From Bilabrum cf. latius (lineage: Eukaryota), in contig OZ237742.1 of the NCBI GenBank assembly GCA_965178125.1, positions 558,001 through 622,000 on the forward strand: a stretch of 64,000 nucleotides of DNA. The letters are read 5' to 3'. The number at the start of each line of letters is the position of its first letter. Positions within the stretch are counted from its first letter, which is position 1. This document shows, piece by piece, positions 3,144-60,063 of this stretch. The notes beneath the pieces are model-generated. The model was not told the origin of the DNA and ran no database searches. It saw only the letters and a program-made list of their open reading frames with translations. Both the position numbers and the translations under genes were made by a program.

Positions 3144-4682
3144 ATGCGCCCTTCAAGGGCACCCCTGGTGATTTAGGCTGTGGCTGTGATCACGTTTGCA
3201 TCCTCCGAGACACTTGCCAACCTGCCTGATAGTACACTGGCTATCACTGAAGTAGTGTACTCACAAGAAACTTAGTATTTGTTTGTGGGAACTCCATCCA
3301 TTACACGACTTCAGAACGGGACTTTGCTGGCATCCTACAACTATTTCAGCGGTGGGCCATCGCCAGAATGCAAACCTGGTCCTGAAGAAGCGCGATCGAA
3401 TGTCTCGGTCTGGGCGGTTGCGGATGAAATAAGCGCCTTAGCAACAGTGAGAGGGTACCCTAGTGATACTACATACGTCGTGGCCTCCCACGATGACGGG
3501 CAGTCCTGGAGCAGCGGTCCGGTGACCACGATACACCCCATCCATTTCACGACGATCCAGCAGCTTCCAGCCTTAACATCGACATCGTCTGGCGTGGCAG
3601 CTGGACCCCCCCTCGCAGCAGTGGGGACGACTCCTGGTGGAATCCGAGTTGCCCTGTCATACGACGGAGGCATGCAGTGGCAGTCGCAGCTCGTTGTAAA
3701 TGGCACATTTGACTCGGGCGCGACCCCAATCGTGGTGCACGGCGGGTACATGTACCGCGCCGTCGAGGCCAAAGTCGGCAAGGGTGGTTGGCCCGTGGAG
3801 TACCAGGCAGTGATGCTCCGCGGCCGCATCGAGGGCGGCTCCTACGACTCGCTGCTGACGCCGTCCAATTGGGTGGCCACGCCGCCCCTGCAGTTCCAGT
3901 ACCCGGCTTGGATCCCGCCGGCATGGAGACAGGTGGAGTGGTCTAAGCCAGGATATTTAGAGGGCAATGCTGTGGTGGGACCGGACGGCGTGACCATGTA
4001 CAACTTCTTGCGTGTGAACTCGCTGCCGTACGCCAACAAGGGCATCCTACTCAAGTACACGCCCCCGGCCTCGGACACCGACGCGTCTGCGTCTGCGTCG
4101 GGCGGGGGCGCGCTGTCATTCGATCGCGCGGTGGAGTTCCCCGGTGGCATGAGCAAGTTCAGCATCCGTCGGCTGGAGGGCCTGGCGCCGGGGGGCGGCC
4201 CGCTGTACGTGGTGCTGTCGAACAATGTGACGGACGTGGACTGTCCCAGCATGCGGGATGTGCTGACCGTGAGCACCAGCACTGATCTGGTGCAGTGGGA
4301 GGTGCACGGGGTGGTGCTGCATGATGACACGGGCTTGTCTCAGCAGGACGCGCATCGGTATGCGGGCTTCCACTATGTGGACGTGGTGGCAGAGGTGGTC
4401 GGGAGCTAGCAGCCCGATGCCAGTGCTATGAAAGGGCCGGTGTCGGAGGGCCATCAGCTGCGGGGCGGGGGCTCTGTGCGGACGTCTGTGGTGGAGCTGT
4501 CGTTCGTGGTGCGCACGGCGTACCGTGGCGCAGTGTCGTACCACAACTCGAATCGTATGACGTTCAAGAAGGTGAGGCTGGAGGTGACAACTGATGACGT
4601 CGAGAGCATCGTCAAGGTGAACTTCTCGAACGTTCGTTGTCCAGTGCTTGGCAACGGCCGCAATTCTAAGTTTCTTTGCTGA
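3144..4682 (+). CDS. Secreted BNR/Asp-box (sialidase-like beta-propeller) protein
   Basis: ATG 3144 gives a signal-peptide-like MRPSRAPLVI*AVAVITFASS. ORFs 3279..4409 and 4428..4682 share a frame joined by TAG, and the gene ends at TGA. Asp-box motifs are SHDDGQSW, SYDGGMQW and STDLVQW. Motifs LEGNAVV, FPGGMSKFSIR and YHNSNRMTF recall bacterial sialidase-like proteins. Confidence 0.8.
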
Positions 4683-18100: not shown

Positions 18101-21100
18101 TGGTTTTTGGAAGGCAGAATCAGGGGTGACTGGCCAACTGACCTGGCACCAGTGGTCCCGAGTGTCTTTTGGCCGTCCAAGCCGTAGTCTACAGAGCTGC
18201 TCGCAGACCTCCGTGCGGCTACACCGTACATGTGGCGCGTCGTGGCTGTTGGGGCTGGTCGAGCAGACGGTCTTGAGAATGCGAGCAACATATCATCTTC
18301 TCGGCGCCTAGAAAACGCGGATCGTCGCGCCAGCGCACCCTCGCAGTCTAGCCATGCGTCACTTACGCTTGCAGCCAAGGATCCAGGCAAGCCGATCTTG
18401 AGCATTCCCGGAGTCCAGGAGGGTCTCAACGGAACCGAGCTGCCTGTTCAGTGGACCGACGCTCGCTCTTAGCACGGGAATTTGTTTGTGGATGTGACGC
18501 CCCCGGATGATTTGGGTGGACAGTCAGTGATGTGCGTTGAATTTGACTTTGCCATCGCTGGGATGCTTACTGACATTCCAAAGGACCACATAAGTGGGGG
18601 CTGGAGCCGAGCGTTGCCGTACCTCTTCGGCCAAGGGGAATCGATATATGACTAGGTAGATGCAGCATACGCTGCTTTGAACTTGGAATCGCCAGCTGGA
18701 TCGCTCGATTCCCTAACTGCGGGGGATTGGCCCGGCAATTTTGGCCGTGATCCGCGGGTTTCTGGCAACGATGCGCATGAGGTGTGGGAGGCCGTGAGCC
18801 GGGGAGCATGGCCTTGGCTGGCAGCCTTGGGGCTCCATGGGGCCGAGCACAGCTGGCCTGCGCGGGCAACCCTGTCACCAAGCACGTGGCTTGCAACTTA
18901 GACTCCCAACAGCGTCGACCAGCCTTTAGCTCCGCCCGCCAGGCTGCGCCCTGATTCAGCCAGGCGGAGGACGCAGCGGACAAAGTGCGTGCTTCCATAC
19001 TCTCCGTTCCTTACAAACGGACCGCCGCGGACCTCAAATGGGTCTTTGTATCCCACGGACTCACCCGAGCTTGTGACCGTGTACGACTCTGACTAGCCAT
19101 GGAGCCTACCTGGTGGCCTCAGCAGCACCGAGGCCCTTTACGCACTGCAAGAGTCTCTGTCCACGCCTGCGTTCGGATCTCTTTAGGACCGATGGAGCAA
19201 TCTCGATTTAGAGGATCCGCTAGCGTCGCTTGTTGATGTCATGTCGCTGCATGGGCAAAATGTTTCTGATACTACGGCTAGTGCGTTCCAGTGGCCTGGA
19301 CCAGGTGTCGCAAGACAGCATCCGCTGAGGGTCTCGATTGACGTCCGTGCCTCCACCTTGCTCTTCGCAAGGGCACGCATCGCAACTGGAACGATCGCTC
19401 CTGTACCCATTGGCGGCACCGCAGTGGCAGCAACTGAACCCAGGAGCCAGCCACTGCCTTGGCGGCGTACAGAGTCTCAGTATGAGTGTGATGCGTCAGG
19501 TTATAGCCCGTAGAATCCACTGAATGTTACCATGACTGAGTTGGACCACGGACAAGTCATGGTCATACCTGACGGATCCATGCAACAGACTGCGCCGATC
19601 AAATGCTCGCCTCACTTGAGTCGAGTTTTGGAGTCGAAACCAGCTGGGACTCGTCGGTTGGACTACGTCACAGACGCGAGATTCCGCTGGTAGGTTTCAG
19701 ACTTCAGGCAAAGCCCTTTTTCAGACGGCATTGCTATCCTTCCGCCAGCCCGCAAGGTACCGGCCCTGGCAGGTCCTCGTGTACTGGGTGGACTGTCTCA
19801 TGATACGGTGCGGATTAGAGTGGACGGAGTTGCGACCAACGATGGTGGTTCTCCAGTGTAGTCGGTGAAGATATACAGGTCTCGTTTCCTGTCCGAGGTG
19901 CCTGAGTCACAGCGCCCGGCTTAGTATCCTCAGCATCTCCTGCCGCACTCTGGACCCTTGCCAGCCGGCGCTGCAGGGCACGGCTGGAGCTCGGAGACGC
20001 TCATCTTTGAAAGGCATGACGACATGTCAGCAAGGCATGCTGCTCGGCAGGCTGCGTGGGCACGCTTGACTCGATACTATGAGAACACGTTGCAGCAAGC
20101 CAGCGACGTGGACAGAATTTCTGTCTAGGATATGCCAGCCCCGTACAACGGCTCGTTCGTTCCTCCGCCCGGATTCAACACGAGCACTGGCGAAGAATCT
20201 TTTCCTTAGGTGTGGCTGGCAGACTGGGGCGTCGACCAGGACAAGTGGAATACCGGTGCTCGATAGGCAGGAGATCCAATGGATAGAATGGTGCCCGGCG
20301 CACGGCTGCAGCTCACCGATGCGGGCTTGCGCCGTGCCACCAGGTACCGCTATAGGGCAGAGGTGTTTAACAGCCTTGGTTCAAGCGGTAGGACCAATGT
20401 GCTCGGTCTGGCGGATTCACTGGACCGGCTGCAACTGGAGGTGGAGACGTTACCGTTACCACCGAGCGTGCCTCGAGACGTTCGCCGTGACTCTGGACTG
20501 GACATTCCAGTGGCCATTGGGCTATCATGGACCCTGCCTGTCGATGATGGCGGCAGGGAAATCACCGGGTACCATGTGTGGGCGATCGACCAGGAGACCA
20601 AGGAGCGGGTGGAGACTGCAACGGTGGCTATAGTATCGGCAGCATCTGGCACTTTCTCGAGAGTTCGAGCACGAATTACTGGGCTGAGCTGGAGCACCAA
20701 CCACACGTTTTAGGTTGCAGCTGTGAATGAGCAAGGGGTTGGAGCACGGTCAGCGGTCGTGCAAGCTGTCACTCCGGACCCCTTGCCTTGTCCATCGAAT
20801 TGCTCGTACAACCTTGGCAGGGGCAAGTGTCACGCATGGAATGGCTCCTGTACCTGCAATTTGGGCTGGGCAATGCCAAACTGCCACGACTTGGCTGGTC
20901 CAGAGGTCAGTATCGACCTGATCGTATCAGACAGGTCGTACGCGTGGCATCCGAGTGCCAACTCAGCTTCGACTCCCGAGATGCCTTTCACGCAGGGCAG
21001 TGGAAAGCTGCCTGCTTCTCCAGTTGCCGATGTGATATAGCTATCGCCCTCGGTGGGCTTCTTCAGGTAGCTATCTGGCAGCGATGAAGACTCTGAACCT

Positions 21101-24100
21101 GGATACGTTCTGCATACCAGTCGTGCCCAGTAGCTCATGGGCGTGCCGGTCACGTCCGGGCATCGAGGTAATGATTACCTCTCGCGCTTCTAGCGGAGCC
21201 GATCTCTCGCCGAGAAACAGATGAAGGCTGCCTATGGCAAGTTCTGGGGTAACGTGCGAGGCGGTCAGCAGGGCATTATTCGTGGTAGTCGTGGGTCGTG
21301 GAGCGCATCTCTGAATTCGATGCACAGTCTTGCAGCCTGGTACTGGTCTGATCCTGCGCCTGATGCGAATGAGCTCGATGGTGCTGTCAAGTTTGAAATG
21401 AGTACAGAAGACACTAGCAATTAGGGGAGTACCACGTTTGCACCTGGTCGCTCGTTGCATAGCGGCCACACTGGTGAGCATTTTGTGTGGAGAGAAGATG
21501 CCTTGTAGCTGTTTCTTACCTAGCTAGGCGATGCATTAGAGCCCGGCGAGTCAGAGACGCGGAATGCAGTTGCAGCTAGGCGACTTCTTCTGACCGACAG
21601 CGTTAGGACAAGGATTGCAGCGACAGTCTCGGGTGGGTACGGAAGGCAGGCGCTTGGCCGTCAACCCACGGCTTCTGACAGTGTCTGGAGAGTCAGTATC
21701 AAGATTGCTTTGATGGCCTGCGGCAGCGTTCATGTTGCGAATGCTGACAAGCAGCACTGCACGCCATCGAGCGATGTTCTAGATCGTCTTCGATCTGATT
21801 TTACGGTACTTCCTGATTTGAGCCGAATTGGCATCGAATAGCTCGCATTTCAGCACAACGGCGGGACGTTCACACTGAATCCGACGAGGACGAGCTGCGA
21901 GCTGCGCATAACATGCGACTCGTGCCTTGCGATGGTTTCTGGGGCCTGCGGGTGGTGCTCCGCCACACAGTCGTGCGTCGCGGGAGATGGGTCTGGGCCG
22001 GCTGTGTCGAACCCGGTCTGTGGCGTGCAGCCCATCGTGATTGATGAGCTAGTCAGCACGTATGGTCCCCCTGCTGGCCTGACACCGATGCCTCCGTCCC
22101 TCGTGGACACTTTGACGAGCGGCGCAAGTGCTGGCGATGATGACTTGCCTGGAAATGATGCTGTCCTGAATGTTGACCTCTCAGCGCAGCTGGTCAACAA
22201 TTACTACGATGCTGGCTTCTACAGGCACTATCTAGCTAGCCCGGTTTCCGGGAGGTCGAGATGCCCGTTCAGCTGCTAGCTTTACTCTGATTGCGATGCA
22301 TGCAACGATAACATCAATTGCGGTTGGTGTGAGACCACCGACGAATGCGTGTCAATCTCAGCGGTACAGGTAGAGTACGAAGGTACCGAGCCCGTGGAGG
22401 AGGGCGAGGGCCTGGTATACAGCAATTCTCCCCAATGCAGAGGCTCTGTGCTGGTCGATCAGGACATGTGTCCGGCTAGTCGATGCCGTAGGCTGCAGTC
22501 GTTCGGTGAATGCAGCCAGGACACGTCTTGCGGGTGGTGCTCAAACCGCACAGTTGCCATCAGTACCGACCGTGGCCCGTATTGCTTCGAAGGCGATTCG
22601 TTTGGTCCCGTGAATGGTGCTTGTGCGAGCGGCTAGGTCTACATGTACAGGCAGGCCAGGAGCTGCGAAATTGATTCCAGCCTCGTGGGGGCGTGCTCTG
22701 CGTGCATACAGCAGGCGAGCTGTGGCTGGTGCGAAGAAACCCAGCGGTGCGGCGTGTCTCTGTTCGGGATTGAGCCGTCCGCTGGTTCCGATTAGAGCGG
22801 GCTGAGCCGCTTGGCGCGTGGTAGCTGTCCAGGGCCCCGGTTCATAGACTAGGTATCCCTGTCTGCCGGCATCGAATGCCCGCTGCTGGAAGCAGACAGG
22901 CGGAAGGTGTGCGAATCCTTCAATCGGCAGATGTAGGATGGCCTGGCGAGCAGCGAGATCGAAGCCCTCGCCAAGGGACCCACTCAGTCCACCGAGTCGA
23001 GGACGTGCGCCAGCTGCCTGGGGTTGGACTACTGTGGCTGGTGTCCTTCAGTCAATGGCACCGGCAGGTGCATTCTCATGGATGATGCCAGGCAACCGGG
23101 GCTGCACATGGGAGACCCCGGGTACTGCCCTGCGGTACAGGCTGTGATCGACCTGGACGGCACTCGAGGCAGCCCGACGTTGGGAGGCTTCGACCTGGCG
23201 CCCATCGTGCGACCGTCTCAGATCGCGGCAACCCAGGTGCAATGCCCGGCTCGGTGCCCTCAGCGCAGCGTCCGCATGAATGCTGGAGGCAACATCACGC
23301 ACGGCACTCCAATTGGCACGTCGGGGCTGTTTGACAGTGTGTACAAGCCTGGCGATGTCTGCACGTGGGAGATTGATCCATTGGGCATTCACGCGCTGGA
23401 TGGACAAACGCAGACGGTGGGCCGAAGCAACGATCACAGGCTCAATACGATCACGTTCACCGCAATCCACATCCGTTTGCAACCGGGTGACTCGCTTAGC
23501 GTGTACACGAGCCCGCGCCCTTGGATGGTCTACGAGCCATCTTCCACGGCTCAACTGAGCAACGACCCGAATTCCATGCTTTCCGTCCCCGCAAATAACG
23601 ACGAAAACCTTTTAGTACGGTACATCGGCGGAGACACCGAAGAGCACCCGGGTGAAGGTCGGGAGTTCTCGAACACGGATGGGGCATACCTGTGGGTAGA
23701 GCTGCATGCTGCCGGCACCTCGGGGCAAGGTGGCCGTGGGTTTCATGCTACTTACTCGGCGAAGTATGAGAACCCCTTCAACGTCTACCTCATCCTGGCA
23801 GTGGTGGTGTGCATTGCAGCAGGCTGTGTGATGCTAGTGTGCGGCGTCAAGAAGGTCATGTCGTACGTTCGCGACAACCGGGACCAGGGCATGGGACCTC
23901 CTGGCGGGTTTGACGTTGAGGAGAACGATGCGGATCTTGCGGAGATGGAAGAAGATGCCGAGAGGAATGGTGAGGCTTGTCCTGACTTTGTGATACAGAG
24001 TTTCCCTGCCTGGCACCACGATGAGGACAAGCGAGGGCAGACGCCCCTGAAGGACATCGCCAAGGAGGACCTCACCTGCCCCATCTCCCAGGAGGACTTC

Positions 24101-25105
24101 AAGAAGGGCGACCCCATCCGCATTCTGCCGTGCAAGCACTTCTTCAGCGCGGATGCGATCGATCAGTGGCTGCGACTGCGGCAGGCTTGCCCCTTGTGCA
24201 AGCGCAGCGCCACCGAGATGTACCTTGAGTGGGCTTCCAAGGTGGATGCGGGAGAGGAGGATCCGCTCAAGCTCGGCCCCGGCGTGAAGAAATACAAGAA
24301 AGTGGCTGCTGCAGCCGGTGAGAGGAGACAGGCACAAGCTTCATCCGGCGCTGGGGCTGATGATCACTTGGATTCGGATACTGGTAGCTCTTCTGAGGAC
24401 GAGGAGACGGAGCACGGTGTAGGTGCCTTGGAGAGAACCGAGTTTACTGCCATCAACCCGCTGGCTGTGCGGGGCAGAGTAGGACGCGGCGACCGGGGTA
24501 CTTCGAGCGGTGACGGCTCTCGCGCGCATCAGCGCGACCGAAACGCTGGGCATGGGCACTCTGAATAGGGTGACGAATCTGAGCACCACACTGTTGCCGC
24601 CCGGCTGCAAGAGCTGCTGGGCCGATCCAGGCCTGGTCCCGAGGCAATCACGCCAAGGGGAGAAAGGGAGGCTGCCCAGCGAATGGGACGGCACGTACGG
24701 AGCGAAAGAGGAGACGATGGACAGGAGAAGTTTGTAAATCCACTCGCGGCTCGTTCACGTGGTGCGGAACCAAAAGAACTAGACGAGACCCAGGCCAGTG
24801 CTGCAGGGGCTGCTGGTCCAGAGGTAGCGGCGTAGGATGAAGCTACCATGTCCGCATTTATGGGGTAGAATTCAGCTGGTGAGGTTGCCTAGAAGATAGA
24901 TGGAGCAGCCATGATTGCGTCGCGCACCGGGCCTCCTAGTTCTGAGATAGGGGCTGATGCTGCTTCCCGAATGACGTTCTCAGCAGCAAACCCAATGCTT
25001 GCGGCCGGCGGTGGGACAGCTGGAAGGCGTCGTCCAGCCCTTGCCGGGGAGGAGGATGGTGAAGAGGAAGCCAGCCGGAGGCGCACTGTGAGCATGCCGG
25101 ACTGA
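6131..25105 (+). CDS. Giant (~6,290 aa) type-I membrane protein: signal peptide, FG-GAP-like repeats, Cys-rich/EGF-like, many FN3 domains, EGF, 5 PSI-like domains, CUB, TM helix, cytoplasmic RING-like domain
   Basis: Exon 1 is 6131-6194 (MPRGLLCITFLSILHIQAQN), followed by intron 6195-6305. Then 26 ORF-track fragments lie in one frame; 25 end in TAG and the last ends in TGA. Motifs: FGASVAL..LVVGAP, WSPPVDDGG, GLNHSTSYRFAVAAAN, CPSNCS..GKC..CTCNLGW, CGWC x5, YKPGDVCTWEI..GRGFHATY, TM at ~23783-23850, RING-like at 24077-24199. Confidence 0.88.
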
Positions 25106-33226: not shown

Positions 33227-36200
33227 ATGCAAAAAGCGGCAGATAGCGTCTCAGTACTTCGGAAGCTGCTCCGGACCTACTTTGAGGACGAGACCGCAAA
33301 AGACTCTGCAGTGCAGATTGACAAAAGAGGTAAATTATCGGGTGCTCCTCGGCAAGAAGAGTCAGAGGACCCCTACGCGTTGCAGGCATGGATACAACGC
33401 GTTTACGCTCAGCTTGTAGGTGAGAGACCCCCTTCTGAAGGTACACCACGTCCATTCATTCCCCAGATTGGCTCACAATTGCAATGCAAAATGTGTTAAA
33501 TTTATGTTTTGATCGCACTGTGTTCTCCAGTTGGCGTCCTTACCGAGCACTACAATTCCGACGATTGGGTACCGCCGCATCACTCGAGCTTCGCGGTATT
33601 TCCTACGATTCTAACACGTGCAGGCTCTAGCGCAAGAGCAAAACGAGATCTCCAGGCTTCGCATGTCTGCTGCCGGGGCTAGCCGGTAACTTTGGGCGGA
33701 AATATCGACCAAGCACTGGGCGCCGGCTGGATGCAGTTTTGCATACCCATCCTGGCTGCCTTGATTGTGCTCCACCCGTTCTTTATGTCGCACAGACACC
33801 TCATGGTGGCCCCTACTATTGAGCATTACGGCGATTGGGCAAGGTGGGGCAAGCATTCGGTCGTTGTCGATGGACAGCGCGGCGACGCATCCTCCACGGG
33901 TCCGACGGCGATCACCGTCACGGTCACGAAGGATTCCTCGCTTGACCCATCAAGAATTGTGTACCCTATCTTGGCGGTTCTATGGCTGATCGTCTGCTGG
34001 TCCGTGCAGCGCGTGCACGCGGTCTCGGGTGTGACGAGGGCGCTCGTCAGATCACTCGGCACGGTCGTGCACGAGGAACAATCCGCCGACTCGAGGGGCC
34101 TGTCTGCCACCCTCGGGCGAGGCCCCGCCGGTGGCCCGGGCGGGAGTAGCCCCGGTAAGGACTCTGGCGCCGACTCGGGCTCCAAGGGCGGCAAGTCCGC
34201 CAATGGTGACGGGGAGGACCTGCGGGTGGTGAGGCTGCTCGAGTCGTACGTGGCCACGAGAGACGACAAGGTCTCGCCAAACGTCCCGGCAGAGGTGCCT
34301 GTCGTGCTGCCTGTCTTCGGGGGGGTCAACATCGTCTTGGGGGGCGGTGCTGACGGCGGGGTTGCTGCAGGGCAGCAGATCCTAGCCTCTGACCCAGGTG
34401 CTGGCTCTATGCGCTAGCGCCGTATCATGCAGAGGTAGAGCAGCAAGCGGCAGCGCGGCTTCCTTGCATCGACCGCGCCGGTCGGAACGAGCAGCGGTTC
34501 CGGCAGCGGCAGCGGTTCCGGCAGCGGCTCTGACTTGGTGGGCTCGACGGACGAGGAAAGCGGACCGGACGATAGCTTTATCTTGTCAAATGACGGTTCT
34601 TCTGCTGCTGGCGATAAGATGAAGAAGAAACACCACCACCACCGCGCGCTGGAAGAGCCTGTGGACGACGAAAAGGAGAACATGCTGGTGGCCAGCAGGT
34701 TCAATTCCGCTAGTGACGCGATTTTTGCCGCATACGCCGCCACTGACTGCTGCGCTGGCGTGTGCGGGCAGTGCTGCGACGTCGACGAGTACATTTTTGC
34801 CCCGATACACTGCTGTGGCAAGACGTACCAGGCTGCCTCCTGGAGCGTTCTGGGCGTGTACGCCCTTGGCTTCATTTCGAGCATAGCCATGGACCTTACG
34901 GAGGGCTTCCCAGGCGCGGGCATGTGGGCGCTGGCCTACCTCGCCCCCGTGGTCGTGCTTATCCTTTGCACGGCTGATTTTGTGACTGTGATCGCAAGCT
35001 ACATGATCTCGAGCATCGTGTATATCATGTGGGTGCTAGTGTTTAGCTCAATCCGTGGAATCGAGGACTTTGAGACGCCTGACGGTGGCAATGTGGTCGG
35101 CGTCGCGATTGGGCTCTTCATCGCCACCACCCCATTCTACTCTATCGGAACCTTCTTCATGGCCGCACGACGCTACACGGAGATCGTGGTGCGCCGCAGG
35201 GTGGAGCTGTGCATGCAGGCGGTGGGCCGGACGGAGGCAGACCACGAGCTGGCCACGGAAGCTGCAATGATTCAGATGCCCCCGTTCGCTCTCCGACTGC
35301 TTCACAGCGAGATTGCGGCTGTCGAGCTGGAAGATACGACCGCCGTTCTAGTCCTTAGGCTGCACTTGCGCTGCGAGCGGCTCAGCGACGGCTCAAAGGT
35401 GCGCGAGTACCAGCTTGACGCGTCGGGGGGTATGCGCTCACAGGCATCCTTCCGAAGCAAACGGTCCGGCCGGTCCCTTACCGCGAGCTCCAGAGAACAG
35501 CGGCAGACGGAGTCGTCCCAAGAGTCTGGGATCAAGCCGCCCAAGATGGGCACACGGCAACGGAGCGAGCAAGATACGGCAGGCTACAACGACGTGCTGC
35601 CCTCCGACTACGACTCGGACGCCAGCACCGACACTGGAGCTGGCGGTGTATCCAGCATCCACGGCTCCGTGTCTAAGGAGCAGCGGCAGCAACGAGCTGC
35701 CGACTATGACACGCTAATGGCCAAGGCAAACCTTGCTGCTGTGCTCGCCGTGGAACGTGTGCTCAAGTCCGACAAGTTCGCGAGCCAGGTCACTTGCGTG
35801 AACATCGTGGGGAATGACATCGTGATCGCAGTGCACGGCAACAGCTCTAGCGTGTTTGGCCTCGGAGAAGTCGCGGGAAACGATGCAGAGGGTGATGGAG
35901 CGGTGGGTGTTCAGCCCGAACAGGGCTCTTCAAGCGGGCGGGCCTAGTCAACCGCGGATACATCGTCACCGGGAGGATTTGGCGGGCCGGCCATGTCCGC
36001 TGCATCGCGTTCAACCAGTGGCGACGAGTCTTAGACGGAGGGCAAGCCCATCACACCGGAAGCTGCTGCCTGCTTCAACATCGTTACGGCTATTGAGCTG
36101 GCACTGCGAGCGTCGTGGTACGTGCAAGACCAGGACAGGTCTGGGAGCCTCTCGTCGAACGTGCGCGTCAAGCTTGGAGCCGGGATCGCAATTGGCTCCA

Positions 36201-39200
36201 AGACGGTTTGTGGGTTCCTCTCCTCCGGCTCCTCCGCCCATCGATGGAGCGTGTTCGGGGACGGAGCCACAGAGGCACTGACCCTTGCCAGCAACGGGCC
36301 CGGGGTGCGCATCAGCTCCCGTGCACTAGAGCGGTTGCAGAGCCCTTCCTCCTGGGGCATCGTGACCCGAGAGACGCTCGACCGGATCTCAAAGGTGACT
36401 GGCACTCAAACCAACACGGTGATGCCGTGGACGCACGCCATGCAGTAGCAGTAGCAGCAAGGTAACGCCATGGGAATTCCCGGTCAAGGTCCCGCTGCCG
36501 AAAGATACCTTGTGGCGTAGTGGCGGAAGCAGATCAGGGAGGCAGGCAAGCGCCTCCTTCAGTCGTGCACCAAGCAGCCCATGCCGGTTGACGCCGTGGC
36601 ATTTGGTGCTACCGTGCCTGCGACCCACCTGTACGATATTCCCACCGTCCGGGACTTCGAACCGGTGTCGTCCCCACAGTTGGGCGCAAGTACTTCTGGC
36701 ATGCATAGCGGCATGGTCCGCGATGCGCTTCCCGGCCAGGGCAGCGAGAACACTTGGAGCTCTCGGCGAGGTGCAAGCTTCAAGGCGGAGTCGGCGCTGC
36801 GCTAGTCCAGCAGCCGCATCATTAATATCCTGGGGCACATGAGAGACCTCGCCACCGCTCGGACTTACAAGCAGCCGACCAATGCAATGATGATGATGCT
36901 TCCCCAGCAGCCGTCCAATCGGCATATTGCGCAGGATGAGAGCTTTCAAGAGACTGGCGGAGACCGGCGCGTGAGGCCTGTGATGAGCATGCTGGGAAGC
37001 ACGACCATGGGCGCCGGGTCAATGACCTACGGGAACTCCACGATGGGTGGCAGCTCCACATTGCGCGCCTTTGTGGCAGGTTCTATCTCTGTACCCATGC
37101 ACCAGAACAGCTTCAGCATCCAGAAGCTACCGAAGAACGAGATCGTCCGTCGGCAGCTTGGTCTCCCTCGGATGTCCTCTGGCGTTGAGCAGGCCCTCGT
37201 GCACACCATCACCGCAGCTGAGAAAGCTAGGATGTCGACAGCCAAACGAATGCGTCCACTCTGGGGCACCACGTCAACCGGAGGCAATGAGGCTGGTCGC
37301 AGTCGCTCCACTGGATCCGCTCCAGCAAAGGAGGGAGGGCAAAGGCCTTCCGCGGAGGCAGTTGCTGGAGGCCGCCGCAGCTCTGCGGCAGAGAACGGCG
37401 GATCGGGCGCTGTCGTGCGCACTCTGTCTGCCATGGTACATCGAACTTACGACCACAATCATCCGCACGCTCAGATTCAAGCGGCCGCGCACGGTTCAAT
37501 CGTGTTCGGGTTGCAAGGTCCTGAGCTCGAGTCTGGAGGATCAGAGGATTACTCTGAGGTGCTGCAGCAGGATCTTTCAAAGGACACCGAGAAGGTCGTT
37601 CGATTCAGCTAGTACAGATTTACTCGCACGACGGTGACAAGGATGATTTAGAGCCCCACAATTGTTTTGATTGTTGCAGGCATGACGCTGCTTGATAGCA
37701 TGCTGCGAATCTTGCGGCTCACGTACGCCGGCCCGGCTACTTTCCGTATCAGTCGCGACGAGATGTCCACCCGAGCCTTTGAGGTTGAAGCCGTTAATCT
37801 GTTTGGTGCGGCCGCACTTCTATTACTCTGCATCGTTGGTCTGTGCGTACGCTTTGCTCTGTACGGGCCCAACCGGGTGTTCATCACTGGTGACAGTGAG
37901 AACGGAGCTGTGTGGGCGGCGCTGTCGTTGTTGTGCCTAGTGGGGTTTAGAGTAGTGCAGTGGTTCGGGACACGAGATATTCTTCAAGACAGTGCAACTG
38001 CTTGTTTGAGCCTCATCACGATGGAGACCCTAGCCACGTCGGAGGTAAGCACGATTGCGATTGTGCTTATGGCAGTCCACGCCGCCGACCTTCATGGATA
38101 CTTCCGCACACCTGTGTGGCTACGTTCGACTGGGGCGCTGCTGATCCTGGGCGTGGGAATGTGGACCGCCCTTGAGCTAGGTAGTGACTGGGGTGCCAAG
38201 ACATTTGTGGGCGAGTCCTCCAGTGAAGCAGAAGATTTGCTGTTCGACTGCGAGCGGCTGATATCCCCAGATTTTCTTGTGACTGGAACTGAGCGAGTGA
38301 TTATGGGCCTTCGTATGGTCGTGGCCACGGTGCTAATCGTTTTTATTTAGGACGAGCGCGGTATTGTGGTGCTATCCATGGGTGACCGCATCATGCGAGA
38401 GCTCTCGCTTCTCTCGCGACGCATGGTGCGCCGCAAGCGCATAGTGTACAAGGTGGTCAGTCAGCTGCTGCCGAATGCACTGCTCACCACTCTCATTGAG
38501 CAGGAGTCTAAAGTGGTGGACTAGCGTTAGAACCCGCGCAGCGTGCTGAAGCCTTCTACCACGATTCCTCCTGGGTCTGCCTCGCCCAGCAACGCCCAAC
38601 AGTTCGAGGCACCTACGCTTGGCATCCGGGCGCCAGCCTAGCAGCCCAAGCGGCCTGCAGCTGGTGGAGTTCGCTTTGCAACTGACGTTCGCAGGGATGG
38701 TTCGGATCCTTGGCAGGTACAGCTCTCGAAGCGGCTTGTCATGTCGAAGCACAAGCGGCTGGCAGTACTGTCCGTGCGATTCCGTGTGGCGCAAATGCTT
38801 GATTCACTTGTGTCTGCAGTTAGCCTTTTCAGGCTGGTGCGAGTCCTTGCCGCCATTGTTGAGGAAAGCTGTCAGGAGCCATACTGTGGCGGCGATGCAA
38901 TGGTTGTGGAGGACATGCGACGCACGTTGCGCAAACTGAAGAGCGCCGCAGCCAAGGCATCGGATGGTCAGAAGCACAAGGGTTTCGCCACGGGCGTACG
39001 GTGCAGCGTACACCGATTTGGTATGACGATTGTATTTGATGATGGACGAATCGCCGCGACTGCTCGCAAGGGCTGGAAGCGTGTGGGCGGCTACTGCCCA
39101 GTGATGCACGCGTTGCTGGCAGCTTCATCTGCGATCAGGCGCGTGACTGCTCTCGAAAAAGAAGTCAAAGCAACGCTATCCTTCGCAGCTGCCGTGCACT

Positions 39201-42200
39201 TCGGAGGCGTTATTATGGGCACGGTGGGAACGCAGGGCTAGGCCTGGGACGTTTACGGACAAGGAATATCAGAGGCAACTGCGCTGGCAGCCAACACAGC
39301 GACGCTCGTGTCGCCGGGAAAGTGCAGCGTGGCTCTATCGGCAGCAGCCATGTAGCAGGCTGTTGTGGACGGTGAAGAACTAGCCCGATTCATGCGCATT
39401 AAAATTGCTCGAGCCAGCGCATTCGAGTCTCCTGACAGCGCAACATCAGTGTCTCGGGGTGCTTCCGGTTCGCTCGCTCTTGCCGGAGCGGTTGGCTCGT
39501 CCGTGCGGGGCGGTGCTAGTGGCTCCGCGTTATCTCGGAAGGGATCCCACGGGAGCAACACGGACAAGCAGAAAAGTCGGAAGAAATTAGTTGCTTTAAG
39601 AACGACCAGGCGTGATGGTAACGCAGTTGGCAAGCCTCCCTCGCCGCAGCACAGAGGGCTGCCTGGCCAAGTGCAGCACCGTAGCACGGATAGAGCAGAC
39701 GCGCGGCATCCTGATGCCACAAAGAGCATTGACGTTGGTGGGGATACCGACCAGGAAACGTCCCAGCAGGAAGCACGAAGCCCAAAGAATGAATAGGATA
39801 CCTCCAAGCACCAGTCTGCGGAAGATGGCGAAAGCAACGACGAGGACGGCAGTTCGTCGGGGAGCGATGATTCAAGCACCTCAGGCAGCAGCAGTGGCAG
39901 CGGCAGCAGTAGCGGTTCATCTTCATCGTCGTCGAGCTCTATGGACTCGTCAACGTCAGGGACCTGGCGCAAGAGCGCGAGAACATACAGGTCTGACGCA
40001 GACTCTGAGGCTACCGACGAGGTGCACTTACTGGTGTAGAGCTCGAGACTCAAGATTAGAGGCATTGGCAGTGAGTGGAGCCCATGGTTGCACAACTACC
40101 TTACAAGTCTGGCGTACGCAAGTAGTAAGCAGGTGCAGAAGATTGCGGGAGCGCTGTAGCCTAGGGACGCAAGGGGGAAACTCCTTAAGAACGACCAGCT
40201 GGACCGGCTCAAGCAAAGGTCTTCGGGTGATCCTGAGCCTATGAGCCCCACAGAGATTGCTGAGACCATCCAGTGGCTCTTCGGACAGCGAAAGCGGCTC
40301 AAAAATCCCGTAAGCACTTCGGGTCTTGCGCTTAGGTTGGGGGCAGAGCACTCCGTGGACGACTCTGCTGCAGTTGCTAGCGGCGCAACGGCTGGACAGG
40401 TTCGAGACAGTGCGTCCATGCCTGCAGTCAGCTCCTTGGCGGGCCCAGCTGGAGGTTCAATGTCATCTGTGGCCATTCAGCGACGGGCTATCGCTGCACA
40501 GAAGAGGCACACCCACTGGGCTGGCACATGCCTCGCGAGACTAAAGAAGCTACGACTTCTCGGCGCCGGGGCGTTCGGACGAGTCTTTATGGTTGTGGAC
40601 ACGATTAGTGGAGCGGCCGGTGCCTTAAAGCTGTTTCAGAAGAAGCAAACACTTCGTGATGAGATCCGGTCGGAGGTGACTGCACTGGCGGCCCTCCCAA
40701 GGCATCCAGGTGTCATGCGGCTGGCCGTCTGTCTCGCCATGACTGACCGGATGGCCATTGTCACAGAGTTTATCGACGGCACCACCCTTTCGAATGTGGT
40801 GGCGAACGGCAAGCGACTTCGCGACGACACAATGAAGATTGTCCTTGCCCAGCTCGTCTGCGCCATCGGGGTATGCCACCAGGGCGGCATCCTTCACAGG
40901 GATATCAAGCCCGGCAACATCATGGTTGAAGCATCTTCTGGTGCCGTCAAGCTGATCGATTTCGGTCTCAGTGTCGAAATGAAGGCGCAAGATGGCAAGA
41001 GGCGGCGCAAACGCAGCAACACGGGCAATTTGCAGGACGTCCGCGATGCATAGGGGCGCGTGGTTCTTCGGAAGTAGTCTACCATGGAGAGAGCCAAAGA
41101 CCAGTACGGTGAGGATCTGCCGGCAGATCTGGTCCTGTTCCAGAGCCATACGCGATAGACGCAGTCTAACGCCACCATCAAGCAGTTGAGTGCTGTCAGC
41201 CCGTGCATGACCCTATAGCAAGCCCACCAGCGAATGGCACAGCTTATGATTCCTCCCGCTCTAGAGGATGCGACCGACTCGACCTCTACTGCGCCTGCTG
41301 ATCAGCCGTCGCACCAGTCTCAGTCGACCAAGAGTACCGGCCGATTCCAAGGGCCTGGCGCGTCGGTGGCAGCGAGCGATCGTACAGCAGCATCGGTGTC
41401 CCACTTGCTTCAGACTAGCCGTCACGACGCTCCGATGAACTCCTGCGTACGCTCGTTGCCTGACGGTACACGCTTAGTAACAGCACTGTCTATGCTTGTG
41501 TTCGACCAAAGTCTGGCAGATCCAAGGCAACTGGAGAGTCTGCGCAAGGCCGGAAAGAAGCAAATGCGCGAGACATCATCGTCTTCCGTGGGTTAGACGA
41601 CATCGGAGAGGCAAGACAGCGGCTCAGGATCAACTTCCAATTCGTCAGGGATGGGATTCTCCGTGTCAGAACCGAACCGCCGGTCCTTAACTGGGAGGTA
41701 TAGCCTCAGTGAGGAGGGCGGCCGGGTCGCATCGGCATCGACGACAGACGCTGGTGCTGTTGGGATCGATTCTGCCGCGGCCGGGGGAGACGAGCCTAGC
41801 AGCAGGATGGAATCCATGACTACGGACGAGGTGCTGGCCAAGCGGTACGTCCGCTAGATAGAGCAGGACCCGAGCTTGATCCAGATGAAATCGATTGACA
41901 AGCCTGGACGCTCTGAATTGGAGGGCCTATGCGACATTTTCGACATTGTTGACGAAGATGATCGCATCGTGCCTTCGCTGGTGTGGACGCCCGCGCAGCT
42001 CAAGAGCGCGCTGGCGAATGATTCATCCATGTTTGATACCGTGCTCATCACTGACGTGGCTGACGTTGAAACAGCCATCGGTGTGCTAATCATCATCGCC
42101 AACATCATGCCAAGCGCGGTCAGCAAAGACACTGCTGATATTCTGGCTGCAGGGACGAGGGCAAAATCAGATCACGGCCAAGGCCGCCGTGGCTCACTAG

Positions 42201-45200
42201 GCACTGATGGGAGCGGGAGTGACTACGGCTCGGGCAGCAGTGCAAGTGGTATGCTTCCGGGTGAATCCGCAGCTACTGACGTCTCTGTTCTCGTGCCTCG
42301 CGTTGTGATGGTGTTTGATGAGCGGCTTGACGACAAGGCGTGCCACAAGATCCGGAAGCGGGTCAACGCTGTGTGCGAAGGCATTGTAATGCTAAAGTTA
42401 GAGCAGACGGTGAGGGATCTCTACGGCTACGTGGTGCTGCCTGGCTTTGCACGAGCCGCCAGGTGGCAAGACATGGTGAAGGCGAATGCGGAGGGTGGAG
42501 GGGGCTTTGAGGAGGAGACTGGTGCCGCTGGTACGTCGTCATCAGCGAGACGCAAGGGGCGACAGCCGTCGGACGTATCCGCTGGTTCTCGAGTGGGAGT
42601 CAACCAGATCGCTAGTCCGCTCAGCCATGCAGGAACATCAACCTAGACCTCTGACCTCAGATCAACCAGTGGGGCACAGGGCAGGGATGGCCAGAAGAGC
42701 TCCGGTGGCTCCTCAGAGTAGCAGGCCACGCATAATGAGGCCAACATGCGTGCTCAAGCCAGCGAGGCACGCCGTCTGCGCGAGGCTTTTGATGCTCCCA
42801 TCCTTGAGCTGCGCAAGGAGTACGCCAAGGGGTTCGCTGGCTCGCCCGCCTTCATCGCTCCGGAGGTGATCAAGGGGGAGAACGTGGGGTATGCTGCCGA
42901 CTGGTACAGTCTAGGCGTGCTTGCCTTCCGTGTGTACGCCGGCCGGCTGCCATACGAAGGCTCCACGACTGACGAGGTGCTAATCAACGGCAGAGACGGT
43001 CGCGTGAACTGGCAGCTCCTCCCGAGGCGCGAGAACCCCGAGCTGCTGGACCTAATCGTGGGCTTGTTGGAGAACGACCCCAACAAGAGGTACGGCTCCC
43101 GAGCGGGTGCCCTGCACCTCATGCGGCATCCGTACTTCTACGGCGTTAATTGGGACGAAATCTATGCGCAGCACAGTCCCCTGGTTGACCAGGAAGCCGC
43201 AACGATCGCTGAGCCCCCAGAACGCTTCACAGACGCCATGTCGGCGGTGTAGATGATCCGATACTCCCGAGGAACTGTGTCCAGCTTCCCGCTAGGTCCC
43301 AGGCAGCACCGCATTGGCGGTTGGAAAGGCATGCCCCAGCAGCAGCACTTTGGCAACAACGCGGCTGCGCAGGGCAGTGGCTTTGTTGGTGGTGCAGCGC
43401 AGGGCCAGGACGAGAATTCAACAAGGCCGCCATCTGAGGTGCTGCCGCCTGCAACTGGTGGTCCTGGCCACCAAGAAGATGCTGGCGACTCTGCCACGAT
43501 GTCTAAGGCTGACACTGTGATTGGTGCGGCAGGATACGAAGAAGTTGGTGCCGGAGGAACGACGCCAAGGACGTCTGTGGCGGGTGCCGATTCAAAGACG
43601 CCAGGCAAGCCCCGACGCGAGCTGTCATAGGACTAGCGTGCAGCGCAGAGCGTGCTAGATTGGATCAAGTCGCCGTAGATGTAGGGGCCAGCTACGTCGG
43701 CTGCTGTGCGAGAAAGTATGAGCAGCCGTGCAGGTGGGCCCTCCATGTCTGCGATGACCACACCAAGGTCTGTTGGACACCAGAGTAGCTCCGACTAGCA
43801 GAAGCAGGGTCCGCCTGTGGAGGGCACTAGCTCCCCGCAGGCCGGCACGGACGCCAAGACGACTCAGGACCAGTCCGCTGCCACTGCCGCGTCAGGCTCG
43901 GAGGCAAGGCCCGGAGTCGCAACCGATGCAGCAGAAGCGGGTGCACCAAGAGCCGCTGGTGGTGGCTTGCACAAGACCAGTTTTGGTCTCCTGCCGGTCC
44001 TTGAAGAAGAGGGGAGCGAGGATTCGCCACGCGACCTCAAGACGCTCGCCCGTGATGCCAAGAACAAGCGACCAGACCAGTCTGCTGGGGCAACCGGGTC
44101 GCAGGCTAAGCTCTCGTTGCGCGGCGCATCTATGCGGCGCGGGGAGGCCCGCTGGACTGGAAGCATGTCCCGGGGCGGCGGTTCCAAGCGCAGCTTGCGC
44201 TTGCTACAGTCATTACACGGGGGATCGAAAGCCGCCGAGGAGCTGGGCTCGACTCGCGTGGAATTCGACAGGCGCCTGGGGCGAATCCAGGCCAAGGCCG
44301 GGAGTGGCGGAGGTGGCGCGATCGGCACCTCGAGCGCTAGGAGCAGATCCAAGTCTCGAGGACGCAAGTCAGGCAAGAAGCACAAGAAGGGCAAAGGGAG
44401 CTCCTCCGCGTCTTCGCGTGGACGGAGCCTTGGATCAGAAGCCAGGGCTCCAGGCCCCGACCTGGACAAGAGCACGAGCTTAAAGAGCGACAAGAAGAGC
44501 AAGAAGTCGAAGAGCAGCAAGAGTCGGAGCTCGAGTCGCAGTCGCAACAGGTCGTCGCGCTCTAGGGGTGGTGGCTCGGCAGCGGCGCGGAGCATCAACC
44601 ACGAGCAAGCTGGCTCCGTTAGCTATGCCGCGGCGATGCATGCATCTGTGGGGGGAGGCGGTTCCTTCGACGAGATGCCTGCTGGGACCCTGCACCACAT
44701 GGAAACCATGCTTCGAGACCAGGAGGCGGGCCAGTAGGCGGCTCGTTCTCTAGCTGCAATGCATGGCGGCGTCGATCTGACCGAAGGAGGCCGGTCCACG
44801 GCCTCCTCTGCCAGCCGCAGCAGCCGCCGAGGGCAAAAAAAGAGCAAGAAGAGCAAGAAAGGGAAGTCTTCAAGCAAGAGTCGATCTCGCGCGGCCCCTG
44901 GCGTGAGTCTCGCAGGCGAGGATGCTCGGTTGCCGAGCTCCGGCGAGGAGAGTGGGGCGGCGGCTCGCGTGGGCGAGCGCATGGCGAGGAGGCTCGGTGA
45001 GGAGCCCAGCCGGGCAGCGCGCGAGGTGGACAAGGTGATCGGAGATGCGCTGCGGAAGGGTAAGATTCGATCCGTGGCCATGGCTCGATCGGTGCACGGG
45101 CATTCCGTGGCAGCCAGCGGTGCCTACTTCCACAGCGCGGCCGGGTCACGTGCTGGCGGCAGGGGCGCATCTCTGCGCGAGGGGTCCTCCAAGAAGAGTA

Positions 45201-45280
45201 AGAAGAGCAAGAAGAGTAAGAAGAGCAAGTCGCATCGTTCCAGGAGGGAAGATTTCGCGAACGAAGACGACCTTCTTTGA
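33227..45280 (+). CDS. Giant (~3,980 aa) multi-TM protein with two degenerate class III nucleotide-cyclase-like domains and a split AGC-type Ser/Thr kinase; intron 33420-33530
   Basis: 16 ORF-track fragments from 33692 to 45280 lie in one frame; 15 end in TAG and the last ends in TGA. Two hydrophobic TM blocks are each followed by cyclase-like segments (LGAGIAIG..WSVFGD..PGVRIS; AVHFGGVIMGTVG..WDVYG). Kinase motifs: LGAGAFGRV, ALK, HRDIKPGN, DFG (40958), then GSPAFIAPE (APE at 42857), DWYSLG, HPYFYGVNW. Confidence 0.85.
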
Positions 45281-45697
45281 TTTGTTCATGGTGCATGGCG
45301 GTACTCTTGGTTGGACGATCGAGGTGAGGGGATTCCTCAGGGGAATCGGTGGTGGGCCACTGTGGTGGCCTCTGGTGATCACGAATCTATGTGAAAACTC
45401 ATGTGTCGTTGTGTATATCATTTTCTAGCAAAAAAAAGTTGACGGACCATGTGGATGTGCCAAAGCGGTGACTGCAGTGGCTCAACGGCTCTCGTCACGG
45501 TAGCTCGCATGCGACGACCAGGGCTGCGCGGCTATACGATCTATGCCGACGCCAGACTCAACATCAAAGACTGGTGCATTTTTCTCGTCTCAAATGCACC
45601 TGCGAGCGATCGGGACCACAGTTTGATCCGATCCATCGACCCACCGGATCTGCACGCTACATTTGCAAGGTTAGGTTTTTGGGATGACATCCCAAAG

Positions 45698-50300: not shown

Positions 50301-50484
50301 CCATTAGATCCGCAAGCGGGCCTGGACTACCCGATATATCTCTGTTTTCACCTGGGGCAGAACCAGTTGATGCTCCTGGCGTCGTTCCGTATCCAGAAGA
50401 TGGCCTTTCTGAGGATGTGTCTTCGGCCAAGAGGCTGCTTGCACTGGAGTGCCTCCGATTCGAGCCTCCGCCCGCTACTTCCAT
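47386..50484 (-). CDS. Amino-acid transporter (Aa_trans/AAAP family, TMEM104-like) with a C-terminal extension
   Basis: Motifs FTINFVMGSGFLAIPW, KYELPEL, YIYGALWSY and VYSQLFHTGLP, plus many TM segments. ORF 48304..50487 ends in TAG and continues in frame through TAG 48145 into ORF 47386..48117, which ends in TGA. Confidence 0.85.
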
Positions 50485-57231: not shown

Positions 57232-60063
57232 ATGAAACGGTTTATACCACACTTTTTCCTTTGGGCATTGAATTAGTACGCAAATGCCTCCTGTATTGCC
57301 TAGTGGGATGTACAAGTACCACCTTGCGTTGCTCCTGATGATATCTCGGCGGCTCGATGCGGATTTCAGTATTCAGGGATTGAGCTCGGCCAAAACCTGT
57401 CATTGTCTGTGAAATTTGTCACAAATAGTAGCTTTGATCCAGAACGCGTGATGTGGTCATCATCAGGTGGGCCTGCAGGGACCGGAATGACCATGCTCGA
57501 TGCAAAGGTCGTGGGCCCTGCATCCGTGTCTGCCACAGCTGTGGCATCGAGAGCAGGCACATACGTAGTCTCTGTAGCGCACCCCAACTGTAGCATATCA
57601 TCCCTACCTGTCGTAGCATGGCAAGGCTATAAGGTGCAAGGCGTCGAACCACACAACAAGGCGTCCCTCCCAAGCAATGAAGAGCTATTCTTTCCGTTCG
57701 ACGTGCCGTGGAACGGCTCGAATTTGAACTCTTCGCTGTCAGCCGCATTTTGGGTAGAAGCCGCGGGCCCTACCGGCTCGCTGGGCCCGGTCCGTGTTTC
57801 GGATTCGGGCCACTTCGAAGCTAGCGGCACGGGCAGTCGCGTGCGTCTCTGGGGTGCCAACCTCGTGGCCGGCGCTGCCATCCCCCCCAAGGCCTTTGCA
57901 GATGGAATAGCCCGGAAGGTGTCATCCTCTGGATTCAACGCAGTTCGCTTCACGATGATAGACTAGAACTGGGCGGGCACGAGTGCACTCGATGCTACGA
58001 TTGTAAGCAGCGACAGGGTGCACCTGAATGCAACCATGCTGGACCGCCTGCATTTTGTCATGGCAAGCTTGAAGCAACGAGGGGTGTATTGGCACCTGCC
58101 TCTACACTTTGGGCGCACGTACTGCAACTTTACTGCAGCCAGGACCGGTTCGGCATTCCTATCTGCCGATAGGGACCCGTACTCCAACGCCGCCAACCCT
58201 TGCCCTGAGATCACAACGTTTGACAAGGCCGTCGCAATGGTCATCCCCGAGGCGCTTGAGTCACAAAAGCGGTTTGCGATGGCTCTTCTCAACTCATCAA
58301 ATCCATACACAGGCCGCACAATCGTGTCGGATCCGGCGCTTGCAGTCGTTGAGCTCTCGAACGAAGACAGCCTTACCATGTACTGGAGCTGGGGGGCCAT
58401 CGATAAAGCCTCTTTGCAATACCCTGACCTGCAGCGCCACCTTGAGCTCAAGTGGACGGCTTGGTAGCTCCAACCGGGACCCCATGGCCAGATTATTGGC
58501 GGTTGCAAGCCGGCTGACCACCCCGAGGACCCATGGGGATCCGTGCTTGCCAGGTCGCAGTTCAACAGTGCCAGCAAGCTGTAGCGGGAATGCTGGGTGG
58601 CGTTCCTCGCTGACATGGAGGTGGCATGGGCTGATGCCATGGGTGCTCTACTCAGAAATGAGCTAGGCTACAATGGCCCCATCGTGGCATCACAGGCCCA
58701 GAACCTTCCTGCTAGCGTCTCGGCTCTCGCTGCAACTGTCGATACCGTTGGTGTGCATGGATACTGGGGCGTCGGCAGGTCGCCACCGCCAGGAGACAAG
58801 ACAAGGTGGGTGACGAACATTCCTCAGGCCGGATATCATTCAGGGGGGGTCTTTGGTGCAATGGCGACGTATCGCGTCCATGGGATGCCGCTGATTGCCT
58901 CCGAGACCAACACGGCCCACCCGAGCACGTACGGGGCCGAGCATGCCCTTGAGTTGGCTGCTATGATGCGGGCACAGGACTGGGACGGAGCCTACATCTA
59001 CGCGCTGTCTATAGCGTTCAAGGAAGAGATATAGAACTATCCAGCGGCGGGAATGGATCCCCCCATGGTCATCTAGCCGGAGCAAGACCTCGGCGATGCC
59101 ACGAGGACAACCCAACTCGTGGCTGCCAGCCGATTCGCGCTGGATCCGAGGCAACCATCTCTACCGCGTGGCAAAATACCTGTGCAAAATGAGAATGTGA
59201 GAGCAATGGGCGTGAATGAGACGGTGGTTGCCGCATTGATTCGTCGGATAGTGGCAAGGAACCTGGCAGACGGAGCCAGGTACCGAGGGACGATGGTGTC
59301 GGGCGCAGACTCTGGAGCAACGAATGCTAGCCGGGCATGGACTGAAATGCAAAGCTGGCCAATACTTGAATCTACTCATGGTAGATGCCACGTTGGCAGC
59401 AATTGCACGAGGCCAGGTGACTACGGCGGTCGGCTGGTACAGATCGAGCCGTACGAGTGGACGACCTCCAGCACGCAGCAAGCCTTGTTTGCGGCGAGAG
59501 GGCCAGCGTCTGCCATAGTGGCGGGCACCCTGACAGGGTACTTGAACGAATCTGGGCTGCCTTTCATCTAGCTGGCCCCGGGGCTATATGTCCGGCCAGG
59601 GCTGTCTTCGGGGCGAGCAGGGGACCTCCTCGAAGGGGGTCCTGCTGGTACTGGCAGTGGCGGCACAGACGGATCTCAGGGTTTTCTCATTGTCTCAGCT
59701 GCATGCATGGATGGAGATTCAGGGTGGTACGTTTCGCTTGCAAATTGCTCCCAGATTCTCGTCGCGGCTACCGGGGGTGGATGGCAGAATACCGGCATGC
59801 AGTTTGCTGTGTCGGACAGGGGCGGGGTGGTCGGCCCGGACAACGACCACTGGGCACAACCTCCAGCGCTTTTCGAAGTTGCAAACGTGACATTGTGTGG
59901 GTTTGCAAGCCCTGCCAGTGGTGAGCCAGAATGGACTGCGCTGCCTCTGGATGGGAGTGGAAAACCAATGGCGCACGGCCCAGGGTAGAAATCCACCGAG
60001 TGCTTGGACCTGGCTGGGTCGTCGGAGCGGACGCTGTGGTGGTCTGTGCAACGCTCTACTTAA
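57232..60063 (+). CDS. Secreted clan GH-A (GH5-like) glycoside hydrolase, bacterial-type
   Basis: ATG 57232 gives a signal-peptide-like MKRFIPHFFLWALN*YANA. Motifs: RVRLWGANL, GFNAVRF, LDRLHFVMASLKQRGVY, NPYTG..DPALAVVELSNE (acid/base), PLIASETN (nucleophile), QDWDG. Five ORF fragments lie in one frame joined by TAG, and the gene ends at TAA 60061-60063. Confidence 0.8.

Follow-up and report, generated by a model that had tools for sequence, protein, structure and literature searches.

The stretch of DNA analysed here, which we call the window, comprises 64,000 nucleotides (nt) from Bilabrum cf. latius (contig OZ237742.1 of assembly GCA_965178125.1, positions 558,001 to 622,000 of the forward strand), with a G+C content of 56–63% along its length and about 59% overall. 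Its genes carry TAG, a stop codon of the standard code, inside their reading frames, and the meaning of this codon is our subject. Translated with the standard code, the window has no open reading frame (ORF) longer than 728 codons. With TAG read through, ORFs of 6279, 3926, 1358, 1178, 1075, 1034, 975 and 914 codons appear, whereas reading through TGA or TAA instead gives a longest ORF of 828 or 749 codons, respectively. The TAG-containing ORFs carry eukaryotic domains (Pkinase, Pex16, 5'-nucleotidase with Metallophos, fn3, PSI, RING, 3'-5' exonuclease and Aa_trans). The two longest encode a giant protein and a membrane protein kinase (Table 1); in the latter, the kinase domain is matched with E = 1.2e-45 and a cyclase-like stretch matches Guanylate_cyc weakly (E = 0.056). 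Twelve long ORFs together hold 153 TAGs in 18,692 codons (0.82%), along with 444 CAG and 173 CAA codons.

Because long, domain-bearing ORFs appear only when TAG is read through, TAG is an ordinary sense codon in the window's genes. In-frame TAG in genuine genes is far beyond chance, and its frequency in conserved protein-coding genes is what NCBI translation table 15 leads one to expect. The best explanation is that UAG is read as glutamine (Gln) and that UAA and UGA are kept as stops; judging from the sequence comparisons described below, we put the probability of this at roughly 0.85.

Genes still terminate at TGA and, in fewer cases, at TAA. Ten of the long ORFs are complete, and eight of these end in TGA and two in TAA. 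The 6279-codon ORF has TGA at both borders and contains 55 TAGs versus no TAA at all. If TAA were used like CAA (CAA:CAG 173:444), about 20 TAAs would be predicted in this TGA-bounded frame; because none is observed, TAA is not a sense codon. Allowing TAA as sense in addition to TAG hardly alters the ORF lengths. Both codons thus behave as in table 15: TAA is non-sense and still terminates, and TGA still terminates, as seen in the eight of ten ORF ends and in the ceiling of 828 codons when it is read through. At the terminus of the 5'-nucleotidase ORF, a TAG stands immediately before the TGA (30046–30051, minus strand).

The tract from which this analysis set out lies in the kinase ORF and reads ATG CAG TAG CAG TAG CAG CAA, as we confirmed by reading the sequence directly at 36440–36460 on the plus strand. 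An earlier note on this DNA, made from the sequence alone, had described TAG there as alternating with Gln codons. The alternation is borne out: the tract is in frame in the stop-to-stop ORF 33500–45277 (+), where its two TAGs are residues 983 and 985, and four further TAG contexts given in the same note were each exact when re-read (Table 1). That TAG is enriched beside Gln codons is weakly supported. Among the 305 codons next to TAG, 16 encode Gln, or 1.59 times background (binomial p = 0.048), but with the focal tract removed the count is 12 of 301 (p = 0.29). This adjacency of Gln and TAG ranks just below that of Gln with itself (1.77 times), and a pure poly-Gln run in ORF 50650–54183 consists of CAG codons only. 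Taken alone, the neighbour-codon argument for Gln is weak.

Table 1. Long genes, TAG contexts and TAG sites compared with the close relative or with distant homologues. Coordinates are those of the window; P-numbers denote protein fragments of the relative.
Feature	Position	Strand	Details
Giant protein with fn3, PSI and RING domains	6266..25102	+	6279 codons, 55 TAGs, no TAA
Membrane protein with protein kinase domain	33500..45277	+	3926 codons, 35 TAGs, no TAA or TGA; TAA precedes, TGA ends
Focal tract M-Q-TAG-Q-TAG-Q-Q	36440..36460	+	Residues 981-987 of ORF 33500-45277
GAA TAG ATG TAG GAT TAG (E-TAG-M-TAG-D-TAG)	2445..2462	-	In ORF 3-2744(-)
Tandem TAG TAG	12767..12772	+	Residues 2168-2169 of 6279-codon ORF
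CTA TAG CAA GCC CAC CAG (L-TAG-Q-A-H-Q)	41213..41230	+	Codons read directly
TCA TAG GAC TAG CGT (S-TAG-D-TAG-R)	43625..43639	+	Codons read directly
TAG, Q in relative	36446..36448	+	Kinase-ORF residue 983, first focal TAG; P0229 (...AMQQQ then stop)
TAG, kept as in-frame stop in relative	36452..36454	+	Kinase-ORF residue 985, second focal TAG; P0229 ends
TAG, Q in relative	36518..36520	+	Kinase-ORF residue 1007; P0227
TAG, S in relative	36803..36805	+	Kinase-ORF residue 1102; P0227
TAG, Q in relative	37610..37612	+	Kinase-ORF residue 1371; P0227
TAG, Q in relative	18185..18187	+	Residue 3974 of 6279-codon ORF; P0223
TAG, E in relative	19094..19096	+	Residue 4277 of 6279-codon ORF; P0225
TAG, R in relative	19184..19186	+	Residue 4307 of 6279-codon ORF; P0225; flanks diverged too
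Reverse case: CAG (Gln) in window, stop in relative	38969..38971	+	Kinase-ORF residue 1824
TAG in Leu column	58465..58467	+	Residue 413 of ORF 57229-60060; relative shares stop, P0076 ends at 412
TAG at invariant Trp	4407..4409	+	Residue 439 of ORF 3093-4679, BNR/sialidase-like

We compared public sequencing runs with the window over 6266–25102 and found that some are identical to it and that others come from a relative; none of the runs listed with this stretch was of RNA. One contig of an independent run, 19.7 kilobases (kb) long, is identical to the window over 18.8 kb. The relative's contig spans 6269–25102 and is collinear and about 90% identical, with 1809 differences, 18 gaps and no joints. 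Twelve indels were listed in it (three more exist), and each is either 3 nt long or a +1/−1 pair 3–5 nt apart; among the first 31 listed differences (6367–6883), 20 fall at third, 8 at first and 3 at second codon positions. Because the listed indels keep the frame, joints are absent and the first differences listed are mostly at third positions, the giant frame is, on this comparison, under coding constraint straight across its TAGs. A scan of JGI metagenome contigs with the 5'-nucleotidase found no relative there.

The relative is also represented by short database proteins that are 89–99% identical to parts of three of the window's ORFs. These are evidently genes chopped at in-frame stops by gene calling under the standard code. 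Of 2378 aligned residue pairs, 2190 are identical (about 92%), and 16 of the window's TAG sites could be assessed against the fragments. Nine coincide with fragment ends, at residues 246, 413 and 602 of ORF 57229–60060, residues 1163 and 4069 of the 6279-codon ORF, and residues 985, 1384, 1617 and 1914 of the kinase ORF; TAG positions thus appear to be largely conserved in the relative. The remaining seven are read as a residue, which is Q in four cases and E, R and S in one case each, and in none L, Y, W or K. In the focal tract the relative has M-Q-Q-Q-stop-Q-Q. The converse exchange is seen at residue 1824 of the kinase ORF: P0231 covers the relative's protein up to residue 1823, and another fragment, P0230, picks it up at 1833; the longest contig listed for each is 54125 nt. 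Where window and relative differ, TAG therefore appears to be exchanged mainly with Gln codons.

The earlier note had named an alignment of orthologues as a way to check its claim that TAG means Gln. Carried out here, that check comes out for Gln, with Glu at one changed site and neither Leu nor Tyr at any, and the claim gains support both from the four Q sites, which include the first focal TAG, and from the change from CAG to a stop at 38969. The surroundings of the Q sites are nearly unaltered: the flanks are identical at 20 of 20 positions around residues 1007 and 3974 and at 18 of 20 around residue 1371, and at residue 983 all ten upstream positions and the single aligned residue after it are identical. 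Such near-identical flanks form the pattern expected of a silent change. Gln in the relative pairs 62 times with Gln in the window, four times with TAG and six times with any other residue. The log10 likelihood of the seven residues, with no correction for ascertainment (changed codons alone are visible), is −8.0 if TAG behaves as Gln, compared with −14.35 for lysine (Lys), −14.41 for arginine (Arg), −15.08 for glutamate (Glu) and −26.43 for leucine (Leu), the lowest of the 20 residues.

Several points weigh against reading TAG as Gln. The relative is seen through its predicted protein fragments, and the stops within its frames are taken to be TAG. One fragment, P0225, breaks off just ahead of a codon that is TAT (tyrosine, Tyr) in the window, at 19481, where the relative may have a stop of its own or the contig may simply end. 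A residue other than Gln stands at three of the seven changed sites. Among mutation types in this pair T-to-C is the most frequent, and by our estimate from the counts such a bias would by itself turn about 29% of single-step TAG changes into CAG; under this mutation-only model TGG and TAC/TAT would be nearly as common as CAG, and none of them was seen among the seven sites. The last two points come from distant homologues, in which a TAG falls in a column of conserved Leu and another in a column of invariant tryptophan (Trp). The match between TAG and Gln expected of table 15 is therefore found in the close relative only; the distant homologues disagree at these two columns and are variable at the rest.

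The first of these columns belongs to ORF 57229–60060, for which there are 2978 homologues at E ≤ 0.001, with column tallies taken from the 150 listed. At residue 413, Leu is present in 100 of 120 aligned homologues (88% of 113 in a second tally), and homology fades immediately past this column. Of 94 columns conserved to the same degree, the ORF carries the consensus residue in 73; because the other 21 mismatch anyway (a prior of about 22%), a mismatch at this position would be unusual but not rare, though Gln in a column of Leu clearly counts against the Gln reading. The other TAG columns of this ORF are variable, with N/S/A as the top residues at 246, A/V/Q/R at 452 and D/N at 602. The second column is at residue 439 of ORF 3093–4679, where Trp is found in 38 of 38 homologues. 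The TAG there is flanked by an insertion of eight residues and a longer one, and it may have arisen by a single TGG-to-TAG transition that replaced Trp by Gln in a loosened region. This ORF may be under relaxed constraint or may be a decaying copy; its other TAG column, at residue 61, holds S, T and P. The two insertions break a conserved HYVD-W-Q-x-D motif on the plus strand. A short intron ending at the TAG at 4407 was rejected as a candidate, since the conserved Trp does not reappear when the 27-nt GT-to-AG stretch is excised. A PDB sequence search gave no match for ORFs 56836–60060 and 3093–4679, and in the match of the 5'-nucleotidase the aligned part contains no TAG.

A further reading, which we regard as quite unlikely, makes UAG a polysemous codon in a non-ciliate eukaryote: mainly Gln, it would function as Leu or Trp at certain conserved positions (58465 and 4407) or would terminate close to the ends of some genes. 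In a broader form of this idea, which seems quite unlikely to us too, UAG would have no single meaning: Gln would be its commonest reading, with other transfer RNAs (tRNAs; Leu, Trp, Tyr) decoding it as well, or it would also terminate in some contexts near gene ends. The mixed Q/E/R/S outcome in the relative and the TAG TGA end of the 5'-nucleotidase ORF fit such a scheme, as do the Leu and Trp columns. Yet mixed residues are expected from ordinary non-synonymous divergence at a protein difference of about 8%, and two odd columns are within the normal noise given by the 21 mismatches in 94 conserved columns.

We also translated TAG as each of the 20 residues and scored the products against Pfam profiles. 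For the segment 9713–13315, which contains 15 TAGs, the fn3 scores in bits were best for Q (105.9), followed by E and T (105.6 each), N (105.3), K (104.6), R (104.4) and S (104.3), with W (102.3), L (102.0), Y (101.3), F (100.6) and C (99.5) lower. For the segment 19613–23065, fn3 gave R 36.7, Q 36.0 and L 32.7, and PSI gave K 53.2, R 52.6, L 50.8, Q 49.3 and W 47.8; fn3 plus PSI came to R 89.3, K 88.8, Q 85.3, and L and W 83.5 each. When both segments are summed, the polar residues differ by no more than about 3 bits, and Leu, Trp and Tyr lie 6–8 bits below the best. These scores suggest a polar residue at TAG without separating the polar residues from one another.

TAG might instead specify a different polar amino acid, namely Glu, Lys or Arg, which we hold to be quite improbable. 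The Pfam scores do not tell Q apart from E, K, R, S and T: Q leads by 0.3 bits in 9713–13315, and R and K stand 3.5–4 bits above it in 19613–23065. Among the changed sites, the relative has E once and R once. The same comparison, however, has Q at four of seven sites and a CAG replaced by a stop in the reverse case; the flanks of the Q sites are nearly all identical, like those of a silent change; and Lys, Arg and Glu are 6–7 log10 units below Gln in the empirical likelihood. Codes of this kind occur in peritrich ciliates and Blastocrithidia, where UAR specifies Glu. In the window's comparison, E accounts for one changed site versus four for Q, and TGA, which is a sense codon in Blastocrithidia, does not occur in frame.

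That TAG means Leu is very improbable. The residue 413 column, Leu in 100 of 120 homologues and with the stop kept in the relative, is the single column that speaks for it, and TAG positions do not otherwise match Leu as they would in a UAG-to-Leu code. None of the seven changed sites is Leu, which is also the lowest of 20 residues in the likelihood test (−26.43), and its Pfam score is below that of Gln by 3.9 bits in 9713–13315 and by 1.8 bits in 19613–23065 (fn3 plus PSI). The mean hydropathy around TAG (−0.32 ± 0.08) is closest to that around Gln (−0.34), with Trp at −0.29 and Leu at −0.16, so that the surroundings of TAG are about two standard errors more polar than those of Leu. A classifier based on neighbour composition did not discriminate between residues: many were misclassified in hold-out, and TAG was placed nearest Y and W, with Q only 3.6 log units behind.

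The standard code, with U-to-C editing of messenger RNA (UAG to CAG) or with the TAGs lying in pseudogenes, introns or assembly errors, is barely credible: a TAG/CAG exchange between relatives would look alike under editing, but we know of no systematic U-to-C editing of nuclear messenger RNAs, and against all of these stand the 153 in-frame TAGs in 12 ORFs with conserved domains, the nine of 16 sites kept as stops in the relative, the frame held over 18.8 kb without joints, and the independent run with its identical 19.7-kb contig.

If UAG is read as Gln, then by analogy with other stop-codon reassignments it would be decoded by a tRNA with anticodon CUA that is charged by glutaminyl-tRNA synthetase. 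This tRNA would probably be a mutated copy of a tRNA-Gln. On the same analogy, eRF1 would no longer recognise UAG but would still recognise UAA and UGA. A tRNA scan found no tRNA gene in the window, and an Rfam scan, restricted to the window, found no match to an Rfam family.

Among known codes, the one in which both UAA and UAG are read as Gln (UAR-to-Gln, NCBI table 6) is used by many ciliates, hexamitin diplomonads and some green algae. The window resembles these in that a stop of the UAR box is read, in all likelihood, as Gln, and in that Gln-rich tracts can hold the reassigned codon. It differs in that TAA is not a sense codon: where table 6 would put both TAA and TAG in frame, the long ORFs have no in-frame TAA (0 TAA versus 55 TAGs in the 6279-codon frame). 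TAG-to-Gln recoding has reportedly also been described in phages (code 15), by Peters and colleagues in 2022. Codon and meaning are alike there, whereas the window is part of a eukaryotic chromosome with a kinase, Pex16 and giant fn3/PSI/RING proteins. Its G+C content, very long uninterrupted genes and Pex16 appear to set it apart from the ciliate macronucleus and from anaerobic fornicates. On the best explanation, the window belongs to the nuclear genome of a GC-rich, intron-poor, non-ciliate-like eukaryote.

Nuclear codes in which UAG is read as Gln are described for Iotanema spirale (Fornicata; Panek et al., 2017, PMC5304391) and for the phyllopharyngean ciliates Hartmannula sinica and Trochilia petrani (McGowan et al., 2024, PMC11687900). 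The window shares with these three that UAG alone is reassigned, likely to Gln, that UAA is not found in frame, that UAA and UGA are stops, and that UAG is widespread in ordinary genes; its codon table equals NCBI table 15, as in the Iotanema/Hartmannula type. It differs from these three in its G+C content of about 59%, its very long uninterrupted genes and its Pex16 gene. It further differs from Hartmannula and Trochilia in its commoner terminator, which is TGA (eight versus two of ten), whereas UAA is given as the preferred stop in the paper on those ciliates (PMC11687900). The same sources describe UAG-to-Leu nuclear codes in the rhizarian exLh (PMC5304391) and in three TARA phyllopharyngean ciliates of an uncultivated lineage (PMC11687900). 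As in these, UAG alone is reassigned in the window and UAA is a stop, and one conserved Leu column coincides with a TAG. The difference is that the relative shows Q, E, R and S at TAG sites and never L, and that the profiles disfavour Leu.

Reassignment of UAG alone with UAA kept was long held to be constrained, and it is known, going by the same papers (PMC5304391, PMC11687900), in only a handful of lineages. The window would represent a further, probably independent origin of the UAG-to-Gln code, in a GC-rich eukaryote with long intron-free genes. Our literature search found no report of a UAG-to-Gln-only code in a comparable organism, which does not establish the case as unpublished. The code is present in at least two forms that are about 8% apart in protein, and these would provide a genome pair for studying the gain and loss of TAG versus CAG. 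Annotation under the standard code would split nearly every long gene of such a genome, and the public proteins of the relative are visibly fragmented in this way.

Some further features of the window concern its gene organisation. The long genes lie in same-strand runs, at 6266–46591 (+), 47389–54183 (−) and 56836–63998 (+), with switches near 47 kb and at 54–57 kb. No intron is evident in the 18.8-kb gene, over which (ORF 6266–25102) the aligned DNA contigs show no joints. ORF 45443–46591 (+) matches only the end of the ZIP transporter profile (positions 264–299 of 323), and the match is followed by about 160 codons of non-transporter-like sequence with three TAGs. This tail could possibly reflect an intron, a frameshift or a gene that truly ends earlier, the last of which bears on termination at TAG.

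The window also contains a 48-nt inverted repeat with arms at 53846–53893 and 57096–57143 that are 96% complementary. There are just two copies in the window, and 100 shuffles produced none. A plus-strand gene has its likely ATG at 57233, with one arm about 90 nt upstream of it; the other arm precedes the probable start of the divergent, minus-strand Pex16-like gene by about 100–140 nt, on our estimate. Since the arms are equally oriented relative to their own genes, they may serve both genes as a promoter or 5'-leader element. Between the arms, the 3.2 kb (54600–56900 region) is very G+C-rich and has degenerate 33-nt G-rich repeats at 55339–55503. Within 54600–56900, at the point where transcription appears to diverge, there is no Pfam match, and long open frames run on both strands.

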